Sequence record: AF039873.1
Length of the DNA: 862 nt
Reading direction: 5' to 3' (one strand)
Source: a phage
Shown: positions 6-862 of the stretch, one piece after another
How the letters are laid out: every line of letters starts with the position of its first letter
Numbering within the stretch: position 1 is the first letter of the stretch
The notes under the pieces: generated by a model
The model's database searches: none
What the model saw: only the letters and a program-made list of their open reading frames with translations
What the model was told of the DNA's origin: nothing
Made by a program: the position numbers and the translations under genes

Positions 6-320
6 TCAGTGCGTTAAAACCACAGCGTACCCTGAAACACGGATAGTTAATTGAGGGTATTTTTCAGGATGTTTCTGTGCATCCAAAAGCTGATCACGAC
101 TTAACACATTGACATTTAGGTGTTGACCACCTTCAATTTGAGGGGCGACTTCCACTTTGACTTCACGAAAGGATTCGGGGTCAAAATGAGGTGTAATACC
201 TTCTAGATCTTCAACTAGAACTTTTTGTTTAAGTTCACCATCTTTAGAATATAATTGAGTAATCTGATTATTATGAACAATATTAATTACGCCAGATTTA
301 AGATTTTGATACGCTTTCAT
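6..320 (-). CDS. grcA: GrcA/YfiD-like autonomous glycyl radical cofactor (pyruvate formate-lyase C-terminal glycyl-radical domain protein), 104 aa, unusually short C-terminus
   Basis: Minus-strand ORF from the six-frame track. The segment [11 protein letters not shown]...[18 protein letters not shown] matches, from memory, the conserved glycyl-radical domain of E. coli GrcA and the PflB C-terminus, including the RVSGY signature (Gly codon at 30-32). Start placed at ATG 318-320 (Met26 of the track ORF) because AGGAG sits 5 nt upstream and 334-395 is occupied by a tRNA. Alternative starts GTG 393-395 and ATG 387-389 lack a convincing RBS. Stop TGA at 6-8. Confidence 0.85.
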
Positions 321-324
321 TAGA

Positions 325-330
325 TCTCCT
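325..330 (-). promoter_or_regulatory. Shine-Dalgarno (AGGAGA) for the GrcA-like CDS
   Basis: Minus-strand sequence ACC-AGGAG-ATCTA-ATG: AGGAG at 326-330 with a 5-nt spacer to ATG 318-320, beginning 3 nt after the CCA end of the upstream tRNA. Confidence 0.6.
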
Positions 331-333
331 GGT

Positions 334-409
334 TGGTAGTTAGTAGTGGATTTGAACCACTGTAGTCGCTCCGTATGAAGGAGGTGCATAACCACTCTGC
401 CAACTAACT
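334..409 (-). tRNA. tRNA with anticodon CAT (elongator Met, or Ile2 if C34 is lysidine-modified), 76 nt, CCA encoded
   Basis: Hand-folded cloverleaf on the minus strand: acceptor AGTTAGT/ACTAACT (7 perfect bp), D-loop containing GG, anticodon loop TTCATAC (U33, CAT, A37), T-arm AGTGG-TTCAAAT-CCACT (5 perfect bp, canonical T-loop), discriminator A, encoded CCA at 334-336. Irregularities: D-stem has only 3 Watson-Crick pairs (G13.A22) and C.C at 27:43. Not initiator-like: 1:72 is paired and the anticodon stem lacks three consecutive G-C pairs. Confidence 0.8.
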
Positions 410-425
410 ATTATGTTTTACTAGG

Positions 426-453
426 CTAAGTAAGTATTCTTTGTACTCCTTAG
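426..453 (-). other. Hairpin in the 98-nt spacer between the two tRNAs; possible processing or structural element
   Basis: Minus-strand RNA CTAAG-GAGTA / loop CAAAGAA / TACTT-A-CTTAG: about 10 bp including one G.U, with a 1-nt bulge. The same region on the plus strand has an A.C mismatch in place of the G.U, so the structure is better as minus-strand RNA. No U-tract follows it on the minus strand. Confidence 0.3.
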
Positions 454-507
454 ACCAACTAGCTTTTTTAAACTTTCCTGGGACGCATAAGTCTTAATTC
501 CTAGATT

Positions 508-584
508 TGGTACTCCGGGAGGGATTTAAACCCCCGATCTCTCGGTTATCAGCCGAGTGCTTTAGATCGCTAAGCTACCGAAGT
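508..584 (-). tRNA. tRNA-Ile (anticodon GAT), 77 nt, CCA encoded
   Basis: Hand-folded cloverleaf on the minus strand: acceptor ACTTCGG/CCGGAGT (7 bp, one G.U), U8, D-stem GCTT/AAGC, anticodon stem CTCGG/CCGAG (5 perfect bp), anticodon loop CTGATAA (U33, GAT, A37), variable loop AGATC, T-arm GGGGG-TTTAAAT-CCCTC, discriminator A, encoded CCA at 508-510. Confidence 0.85.
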
Positions 585-627
585 ATTAAAATATTACATC
601 ACACACTGTCTAAGTAAGAAGTATAAT

Positions 628-643
628 GGGAACTTAAGTTCCC
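628..643. repeat. Perfect 16-bp palindrome GGGAACTTAAGTTCCC (6-bp stem, 4-nt loop if folded)
   Basis: The sequence equals its own reverse complement. It lies about 45 bp upstream of tRNA-Ile in the minus-strand sense. No U/T-tract follows on either strand, so it is not a canonical intrinsic terminator. Confidence 0.6.
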
Positions 644-834
644 AGCCCTAACTACTTCTACTCAGTTCGAGGTACTTGACGAACACACCATAAATCATCC
701 TAAATCGGGTGCCCTAGCTGGTCATGATCCTTTGGGAAATACCTGTTGGACCGTTACTACTTTAACCCTCAAGCGATCTTACTAATTGTGTAACGAATCC
801 ACCGGTTTTACACACCTCTTGGGTCCCATCATAG

Positions 835-840
835 ATTATA
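835..840 (-). promoter_or_regulatory. Candidate -10 hexamer (TATAAT, within TATATAAT) for minus-strand transcription toward the tRNAs
   Basis: Minus-strand TGATGGTATATAATCTATG contains a perfect TATAAT. The expected -35 position falls at or beyond the window edge, so it cannot be assessed. A perfect hexamer in AT-rich DNA is weak evidence on its own. Confidence 0.2.
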
Positions 841-860
841 TACCATCAATGACGGTGCGA
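841..860. repeat. Right copy of an imperfect direct repeat shared with window positions 1-13
   Basis: 1-13 taccgtca+gtgcg versus 841-860 taccatca+atgacgg+gtgcg+a: 7/8 identity in the first block, 5/5 in the second, with a 7-bp insertion in the right copy. The insertion plus the next base (850-856 tgacggt) is the reverse complement of 2-8 accgtca. Confidence 0.3.
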
Positions 861-862
861 TT

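Follow-up and report, generated by a model that had tools for sequence, protein, structure and literature searches.

A tRNA-Met gene immediately upstream of a grcA-like gene in a fragment of the phage T5 tRNA region, and the longest-ORF artefact at their junction

The stretch of DNA analysed here (862 nt, sequence record AF039873.1; hereafter, the window) carries all of its genes on the minus strand, among them a tRNA-Met gene and, 13 nt behind its encoded CCA, a gene for a protein related to the autonomous glycyl radical cofactor GrcA. As judged from sequence comparisons, the grcA-like gene starts at the ATG at 318-320, behind a Shine-Dalgarno (SD) sequence, and the 5′ end of the ORF that a mechanical listing gives for this gene (6-395, minus strand, GTG start, 129 aa) is a longest-ORF artefact. 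The start is assigned to that ATG because the T5 annotations, the N-termini of homologues and the upstream stop codons of related phages agree, and the extension is open only because the tRNA contains no stop codon in that frame. The result is the correct diagnosis of an ORF-calling artefact and not a discovery. The T5 reference annotation has included the tRNA and the gene, side by side and with this start codon, since 2004-2005; in NC_005859 and AY692264, tRNAM(CAU) is placed 13 nt upstream of a 369-nt CDS that begins at the same ATG.

Source of the window and the tRNA-Met gene

In a blastn search of the phage collection, the window matched the region of tRNA genes in Escherichia phage T5 (Demerecviridae, Tequintavirus), with 96.6 % identity over 4-781 and 99.6 % identity over 1-467. 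The T5 records concerned are NC_005859, AY543070, AY692264 and AY587007, in which the grcA-like gene is named T5.056 or T5p055. The order of transcription in NC_005859 is T5.058, tRNAI1(GAU), T5.057, tRNAM(CAU), T5.056 and T5.055. T5.058 and T5.055 are both labelled hypothetical protein, T5.057 is a doubtful 28-codon ORF between the two tRNA genes, and T5.056 bears the product label 'putative acetyltransferase-related protein', with a glycine-radical domain.

The upstream neighbour of the tRNA-Met gene in the window, apparently in the same transcription unit, is a tRNA-Ile(GAU) gene at 508-584 (minus strand), which was identified by ARAGORN and Rfam (65.5 bits versus a gathering score of 29) and corresponds to T5 tRNAI1(GAU). 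Further upstream, 599-862 (minus strand) holds a copy of T5.058 that has decayed or diverged; it continues beyond the end of the window, and its frame is broken by several single-base indels. The window differs from T5 in a 1-nt deletion within the grcA-like ORF, described below, in further indels upstream of the tRNA-Ile gene, and in the unmatched segment 782-862. At least eight single-base indels relative to T5 were counted between 430 and 781; the T5.058 frame is split into three and T5.057 is destroyed. Searches with 782-862 gave no match to T5, in the phage collection or in IMG/VR, and the conceptual translation of this segment had no tblastn match among phages. Very probably, the window derives from the tRNA region among the early genes of phage T5 or of a near-identical Tequintavirus.

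A near-canonical tRNA on the minus strand at 334-409 had been proposed from the letters of the window alone (hereafter, the sequence-only reading), and both programs applied here found it. ARAGORN called a tRNA-Met (anticodon CAT) at 334-409, and Rfam RF00005 matched 337-409 with 51.5 bits (E=5e-10; gathering score 29). The anticodon, CAU, lies at 375-377, and the CCA is encoded, at 334-336. Seven Watson-Crick pairs form the acceptor stem of the cloverleaf, the T-loop is UUCAAAU, and the sole non-standard pair is 13:22, a position that is commonly non-Watson-Crick in tRNAs. The sequence is identical to that of T5 tRNAM(CAU) (T5t01). One T5 record, AY587007, misplaces the tRNA by 68 nt, onto the CDS; the CDS itself is the same there as in the other T5 records.

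Compensatory changes were sought in an alignment of three orthologues from three Demerecviridae genera, namely the window tRNA and those of Klebsiella phage GZ8 (Sugarlandvirus) and Pectobacterium phage DU_PP_V (Hongcheonvirus). Standard pairs filled 95 % of the cells when these three sequences were laid on the cloverleaf, and both sides had changed in 6 of the 21 pairs (four of the five anticodon-stem pairs and two acceptor-stem pairs). As controls, structures slid by 1-3 columns gave 21-62 % paired cells, and none of 500 shuffles equalled the observed values. Because the pairing and the compensatory changes exceed these controls, the region can be said to evolve as a set of RNA helices and not as codons.

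Both a tRNAfM(CAU) and a tRNAI2(CAU) are annotated separately in T5, and each aligns poorly with the tRNA at 334-409. Since these two are distinct from it, the tRNA in the window is most likely, on sequence grounds, an elongator tRNA-Met. T5 is reported to encode both Met and fMet tRNAs (Chen et al. 1975).

Start, product and 3′ end of the grcA-like gene

Read on the minus strand, the junction is ...CUAACUA-CCA(336-334)-ACC(333-331)-AGGAGA(330-325)-UCUA-AUG(320-318). The SD sequence AGGAGA (325-330) is followed by 4 nt (UCUA) before the AUG, and the three bases ACC (331-333) are all that separates it from the encoded CCA, as direct reading confirms and as is also the case in T5. The sequence-only reading had described both the ATG behind AGGAGA and the ACC correctly; its statement that the gene starts 15 nt after the CCA needs correction, the spacer from CCA to ATG being 13 nt and the A of the ATG the 14th base after the CCA. 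The tRNA, spacer, SD and ATG are identical between the window and T5, and in phages 8sent1748, LmqsSP1 and HZ_ZJUN2 ACC is replaced by AAC.

The long ORF, with its GTG at 393-395, traverses the tRNA as had been proposed: the overlap, counted base by base, is 62 nt (334-395), so that about its first 21 codons are tRNA sequence. Together with the 13-nt spacer, these 62 nt make up a spurious N-terminal extension of 25 codons (321-395, minus strand), and the true start codon is Met26 of the long ORF. Three T5 records begin a 369-nt, 122-aa CDS at the equivalent of ATG 318-320 (T5.056, T5p055 and AAX11991). Six proteins were aligned (the window ORF, T5.056, an Epseptimavirus homologue, GrcA of Vibrio phage KIT04, T4-like vs.6 and E. 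coli GrcA), and the N-termini of all five homologues fall at the Met26 column or one column earlier; no residue of any of the five lies opposite positions 1-25 of the long ORF.

Related phages give the same answer. In all seven relatives in which the tRNA does not adjoin the SD, an in-frame stop stands five codons before the same ATG. In six of these (L004-L009) the tRNA and the gene are 183-600 nt apart, and in the seventh, phage EC104 (L013), 23 nt. All seven still encode the same 122-aa protein behind upstream DNA that is unrelated to the tRNA. The SD region, GGAGATCTAATG, is present in 12 of 12 relatives examined, regardless of the DNA upstream of it. That the long ORF is genuine, its protein beginning at GTG 393-395 (or ATG 387-389) and 334-395 coding doubly for tRNA and peptide, is extremely improbable: the frame is open across the tRNA, and one public record, PP216084, annotates a 438-nt CDS from within the tRNA and no tRNA, but dual coding is ruled out by where the homologues begin and by the in-frame stops of related phages, the compensatory base-pair changes are those of an RNA, and GTG 393-395 has no SD and lies within the folded D-arm/anticodon-arm region.

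The product, as read in the window, is a GrcA-like CDS of 104 aa at 6-320 (minus strand) with an early TGA at 6-8, and it is 97 % identical to T5.056. It matches Pfam PF01228, Gly_radical (InterPro IPR011140), with 61.8 bits versus a cut-off of 22.2 (E=1e-16). The best match among solved structures is E. coli GrcA (PDB 6OWR, E=1.9e-19), and the next is the C-terminus of pyruvate formate-lyase (PFL). The glycyl-radical motif RVSGYAV (21-41, minus strand; radical glycine codon GGG at 30-32) is invariant in the six aligned proteins and aligns to residues 731-737 of PFL and 99-105 of GrcA. The sequence-only reading had stated that, counted from Met26, the distance to the F/Y-REV motif agrees with that of E. 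coli GrcA to within about three residues, and this was borne out: phage F51-R-E-V pairs with GrcA Y54-R-E-V in the alignment (E49-S-F-R-E-V versus I52-E-Y-R-E-V), an offset of three residues. By these sequence criteria, the gene product is a 'spare part' protein of the GrcA/YfiD glycyl-radical type.

Proteins of this type are reported to repair oxygen-cleaved PFL, as described for GrcA/YfiD and T4 Y06I in Wagner et al. 2001, as cited in PMC8683613. After activation by PFL-activating enzyme, YfiD and Y06I replace the cleaved PFL C-terminus, and both activation and PFL rescue have been demonstrated only for E. coli YfiD and T4 Y06I (PMC8683613). The structured, functional half of YfiD consists of residues 61-127, comprising a beta-strand, the radical loop and, at the C-terminus, a helix (PMC8683613). 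The phage protein resembles E. coli GrcA/YfiD and T4 Y06I (vs.6) in size class (116-127 aa), in an identical core (11-residue ... 17-residue blocks) and in a start that aligns at Met26; its N-terminal half is poorly conserved relative to GrcA/YfiD, as expected for the disordered half of YfiD. It differs from them in that overall identity is 51-55 %, with the function of the T5 protein a predicted one, and in that the window copy lacks the C-terminal helix region.

That region is lost through a frameshift. One C is missing relative to T5 between 20 and 21 (minus strand), directly after the RVSGYAV codons, where the window reads GCTGTG-GTTTT versus GCTGTGCGTTTT in T5. The deletion swaps a 22-residue tail, RFNALTREQQNDVISRTFTQAM, for VLTH and the stop codon at 6-8, giving a window protein of 104 aa versus 122 aa in T5. 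The tail is conserved in all five homologues of the six-protein alignment; the C-terminal segment RFNxLTxEQQxDVIxRTFT, which belongs to the structured half of YfiD and which the window ORF lacks, occurs in T5 and in all of the relatives examined. The sequence-only reading had taken the stop at 6-8 as it stood and missed its origin in a frameshift.

The frameshift allele was absent from phage records and from the IMG/VR and JGI metagenomes. The only phage hits at 99 % identity or above were the four T5 records, all of which carry the C, and no protein of 129, 127 or 104 aa corresponding to the window products is on record. The deletion could be a real, private mutation. Probably, however, it is a sequence error, since an allele unseen elsewhere, the indels at 430-781 and the matchless segment 782-862 together point to an error-prone sequence read. 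Because the tail is lost by the deletion, yet FNALT can still be read in the shifted frame, the grcA-like copy in the window is best regarded as a damaged or mis-sequenced member of its family.

The tRNA-mRNA junction and its processing

The NC_005859 annotation has a promoter, P11, upstream of T5.058 and, after T5.055, a rho-independent terminator. Both can be recognized in the sequence: P11 reads TTGCTT-17-TATAAT and has an A-rich tract upstream, and the terminator reads CCCCAG...CTGGGGTTTTT. It is plausible from this arrangement that the tRNA-Met and grcA-like genes are co-transcribed from P11. Host RNA polymerase, starting at this early promoter, would transcribe T5.058, tRNA-Ile, tRNA-Met, the grcA-like gene and T5.055 and would stop at the terminator, and RNase P would then free the 5′ ends of the tRNAs.

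How the 3′ end of tRNA-Met is separated from the message behind it bears on a further claim of the sequence-only reading, namely that the 5′ end of the grcA-like mRNA would be created at 331-333 by tRNA 3′ processing. A search of the literature found no T5 transcript-end data. Two sets of comparisons, with the other tRNAs of T5 and with related phages, are relevant to it.

Among the 25 tRNA trailers of T5, that of tRNA-Met (ACCAGGAGAU) is alone in having no U in the first 7 nt after the CCA; its first U is at +10. A U occurs within 4 nt of the CCA in 21 of the 25; in the three whose first U is at +6 or +7, the next element is another tRNA, where RNase P can cut. Twelve T5 tRNAs have an annotated CDS start 13-25 nt behind them, typically in the form CCA-AAUU/ACUU-(N)-SD-(N)-AUG. 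For junctions of this type a 5′ end derived from tRNA processing is a reasonable proposal, because after an RNase E cut behind the CCA the downstream RNA would still carry its SD. The junction at tRNA-Met departs from this pattern.

The conservation of the junction was surveyed with a 76-nt probe spanning it, which gave hits in 442 phage records. The ungapped 13-nt junction was found in 22 of these (RefSeq/GenBank duplicates counted), to which a few records of lower identity may add. The phages concerned are T5, 8sent1748, 3sent1, HildyBeyeler, HZ_ZJUN2, VAH1, HdH2, MET_P1_100_107, phB7, phC17, LmqsSP1, ESCO40, Kenya-K44 and DT57C. In a small class (EC104, Kenya-K18, Kenya-K20 and PK7) the spacer is about 10 nt longer; in EC104 its length is 23 nt and its sequence CCA-AATTCTAACATCGGGGAGATCTAATG. 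The tRNA and the gene are 170-600 nt apart in most records, frequently with an ORF of 58-76 codons in the interval, and in these long-spacer phages an A/U-rich trailer (CCAUUAAAAUAGC, CCAUAAAAAAGAGC or CCAAAGAUAAG) comes directly after the 3′ end of the tRNA. In these relatives the bases right behind the tRNA read CCAUUAAAA, CCAUAAAAA or CCAAAGAUAA, or CUAAACAGAGG where the CCA is not encoded. More distant genera have tRNA-Met followed by tRNA-Val or tRNA-Arg and no grcA gene behind. The distribution suggests that the 13-nt junction is a derived, lineage-specific deletion, the shortest of a deletion series, and not a conserved device.

In the model now current for E. coli, RNase E cuts 1-3 nt downstream of the encoded CCA (PMC2190699). 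Those RNase E sites that have been mapped in E. coli tRNA precursors occupy A/U-rich sequence immediately behind the CCA, and the U-less trailers of leuQ (CCAAACGAG) and leuP (CCAAAAACC) are not RNase E substrates (PMC2190699). The dominant signature of RNase E is a U at +2, two bases past the cut (PMC5222698). No recognizable endonuclease site is apparent in ACCAGGAGAU between the 3′ end of the tRNA and the ribosome-binding site; the nearest cuts that fit U(+2) would fall either in the interval from the SD core (AGGAG) to the AUG or within the first codons, which are AU-rich.

The single account to which most weight is given, at somewhat less than an even chance, is that the RNA is translated while linked to the tRNA, and that the tRNA 3′ end matures after cleavage within the mRNA and 3′ exonucleolytic trimming. 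Ribosomes would initiate at the SD and AUG directly behind the tRNA. Because the U-free trailer, ACCAGGAGA, would offer no usual entry site for RNase E, the message would be translated with the tRNA still joined at its 5′ end, and only after a downstream cut in the mRNA would 3′ exonucleases trim back to the mature 3′ end of the tRNA.

Rather unlikely is the model of the sequence-only reading, made explicit as a cut by an endonuclease, with RNase E as the obvious candidate, 1-3 nt past the CCA within ACC 331-333. The same cut would free pre-tRNA-Met and produce a short-leader grcA-like mRNA that keeps its SD and has a 5′-monophosphate end. RNase E is able to enter tRNA precursors by structure-guided direct entry, and for this reason a cut at 331-333 would still be compatible with a U-poor trailer. 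The position agrees with the E. coli model just cited, the twelve T5 tRNAs with a CDS 13-25 nt behind them are arranged such that a cut of this kind spares the SD, and those tight-junction phages that were examined keep the grcA-like ORF intact. With a folded tRNA 4 nt away from the SD, 30S binding might also be impeded, and the processed form would then be the likelier one to be translated. Against the model stand the position of ACCAGGAGAU as the one T5 trailer with no U near the CCA, the behaviour of the similarly U-less leuQ and leuP trailers, the location of the nearest U(+2)-fitting cuts beyond the SD core, and the lack of conservation of the junction, which occurs in only about 22 of 442 records. 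Whatever weight these two accounts leave falls to mixtures of both routes or to other nucleases.

A more specific form of translation with the tRNA attached, doubtful and a little less likely than cleavage at ACC, is that a tRNA-mRNA chimera is the translated species: in T5 and its nearest relatives the deletion would have fused the ribosome-binding site to the CCA of tRNA-Met, removing the RNase E entry site, and the tRNA would serve as a 5′ stabilizer and timer. If so, the base-paired 5′ end of the tRNA, once cut by RNase P, would shield the message from 5′-end-dependent decay, and the steps that mature the tRNA 3′ end would be tied to the message's destruction.

Sequestration of the SD was considered separately. 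When the precursor and the processed 5′ end were folded, the result was a hairpin of -5.6 kcal/mol, in which CCAGGAGAU pairs with codons 8-13 and which is too weak. The minimum free energy structures did not favour pairing between the SD and the anti-SD-like CACCUCCUU of the tRNA anticodon arm.

It is very improbable that the grcA-like gene has a promoter of its own inside the tRNA-Met gene, with an mRNA 5′ end that is a primary start unrelated to tRNA processing. T5 promoters can overlap tRNA 3′ ends, as P11 does with tRNA-Thr. A simple consensus scan of the minus strand between 862 and 321 revealed no promoter-like site, which is weak evidence, as the scan is insensitive and misses the annotated P11 and P10a. 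In addition, no promoter is annotated there in three T5 records that name at least 10 promoters in the region, and the -10 element would fall in the T-arm/acceptor stem, with a start site at most 13 nt from the AUG.

Relation to mixed tRNA-mRNA units and to T5 biology

Mixed tRNA-mRNA units and their processing by RNase E and RNase P are textbook E. coli biology. The T5 arrangement resembles E. coli mixed operons such as secG-leuU in that a tRNA and a protein gene would share one transcript, in that the CCA is encoded and in that the parts would be separated by nucleases of the host (PMC2190699, PMC2241853). It differs from them in that the SD begins 4 nt after the CCA and in that the trailer has no A/U-rich RNase E motif. 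A second parallel is the 'tRNA punctuation' of polycistronic mitochondrial transcripts, reportedly described by Ojala, Montoya and Attardi in 1981. There, excision of a tRNA sets the end of the neighbouring mRNA, and the tRNA-CDS layout of T5 (12 cases) resembles it; T5, by contrast, has a bacterial host and SD-dependent initiation, and for its transcripts such punctuation would be a putative parallel. The enzymes differ as well, RNase P, RNase E and 3′ exonucleases being expected for T5 and RNase P and RNase Z acting in mitochondria.

Phage homologues of GrcA were known already, T4 Y06I having been validated biochemically. Both they and the interleaving of T5 tRNAs with small ORFs have been on record for two decades, and the biology is ordinary. 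For annotation, the lesson is that longest-ORF tracks can traverse tRNA genes, an error that is present in at least one public T5-like genome (PP216084). For T5 itself a modest question follows, namely how the phage parts its tRNAs from the roughly 12 CDSs that start 13-25 nt behind them. The tRNA-Met junction, with its U-less trailer, is the extreme and least canonical case among the tRNA-CDS junctions of T5, and it may behave differently from the others.

The 3′-end of the GrcA-like gene and the T5.058 region

In comparison with T5, the GrcA-like gene in the window carries a 1 nt deletion between positions 20 and 21, immediately 3′ of the RVSGYAV codons. This deletion frameshifts the gene, so that the stop codon of the supplied ORF (positions 6–8) is premature, and it costs the GrcA-like protein its conserved 22-residue C-terminal tail. 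The deletion allele was found in none of the other collections searched (phage records, IMG/VR and JGI metagenomes).

Further along the window, positions 430–781 show eight or more indels of a single base when aligned with T5, and the T5.058 homologue is broken across three reading frames, while positions 1–467 are 99.6 % identical to T5. This pattern suggests uneven sequence quality rather than divergence. Positions 628–643 form a perfect 16 nt palindrome, GGGAACTTAAGTTCCC, which is followed by a T-rich tail and has a terminator-like score on the minus strand; the T5 counterpart, GGAGAAACTAAGTTCC, is not palindromic and lies within the T5.058 coding sequence.

Positions 782–862 occupy the place expected for the N-terminal third of T5.058. 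As DNA, this segment had no match in the phage collection, its conceptual translation had none in tblastn, and an exact match was absent from IMG/VR. Possible explanations are a new allele, a chimeric terminus and low-quality sequence.

T5.057 and the annotation of public records

A 28-codon ORF, T5.057, is annotated in NC_005859 between the genes for tRNA-Ile and tRNA-Met (3402–3485 of the T5 locus L001; equivalent within window positions 410–507). The copy in the window is frameshifted. Among the Epseptimavirus relatives examined, three (loci L007–L009) lack the entire T5.057 spacer, and their tRNA-Ile and tRNA-Met genes are 6 nt apart (e.g. L007 607–614). T5.057 is probably not a gene. Two public records also contain annotation errors: AY587007 places the tRNA (L003 1764–1839) approximately 68 nt away from its true position, on the CDS of the GrcA-like gene, and in PP216084 (L014 483–920) the long ORF is annotated through the tRNA, which is itself unannotated.

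Possible pairings of the Shine–Dalgarno region

In the anticodon arm of tRNA-Met, the 5′-side (window 378–386) reads CACCUCCUU. These nine bases match the anti-Shine–Dalgarno 3′-end of 16S rRNA and could pair with the complementary AGGAG situated 48 nt downstream. This pairing was not used in the minimum free energy folds, and the resemblance is probably a coincidence. A weak hairpin (−5.6 kcal/mol) is predicted at positions 292–333, in which CCAGGAGAU, containing the Shine–Dalgarno sequence, would pair with AUCUU...CUGG in codons 8–13 of the GrcA-like gene.

tRNA 3′-ends in T5 and its relatives

In T5 (27.6–40.9 kb; loci L001 and L010), all 25 tRNA genes encode CCA, and for 12 of the 25 the annotation places the start of a CDS within 13–25 nt downstream. 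The trailers almost always begin with AAUU, ACUU or AUUA, tRNA-Met being the sole outlier. Some relatives, namely LmqsSP1 (L012), vaffelhjerte (L006) and AKM_ECS (L008), have tRNA-Met genes without an encoded CCA, in which TCA or CTA directly follows the discriminator A. Such phages must depend on trimming and on the CCA-adding enzyme of the host.
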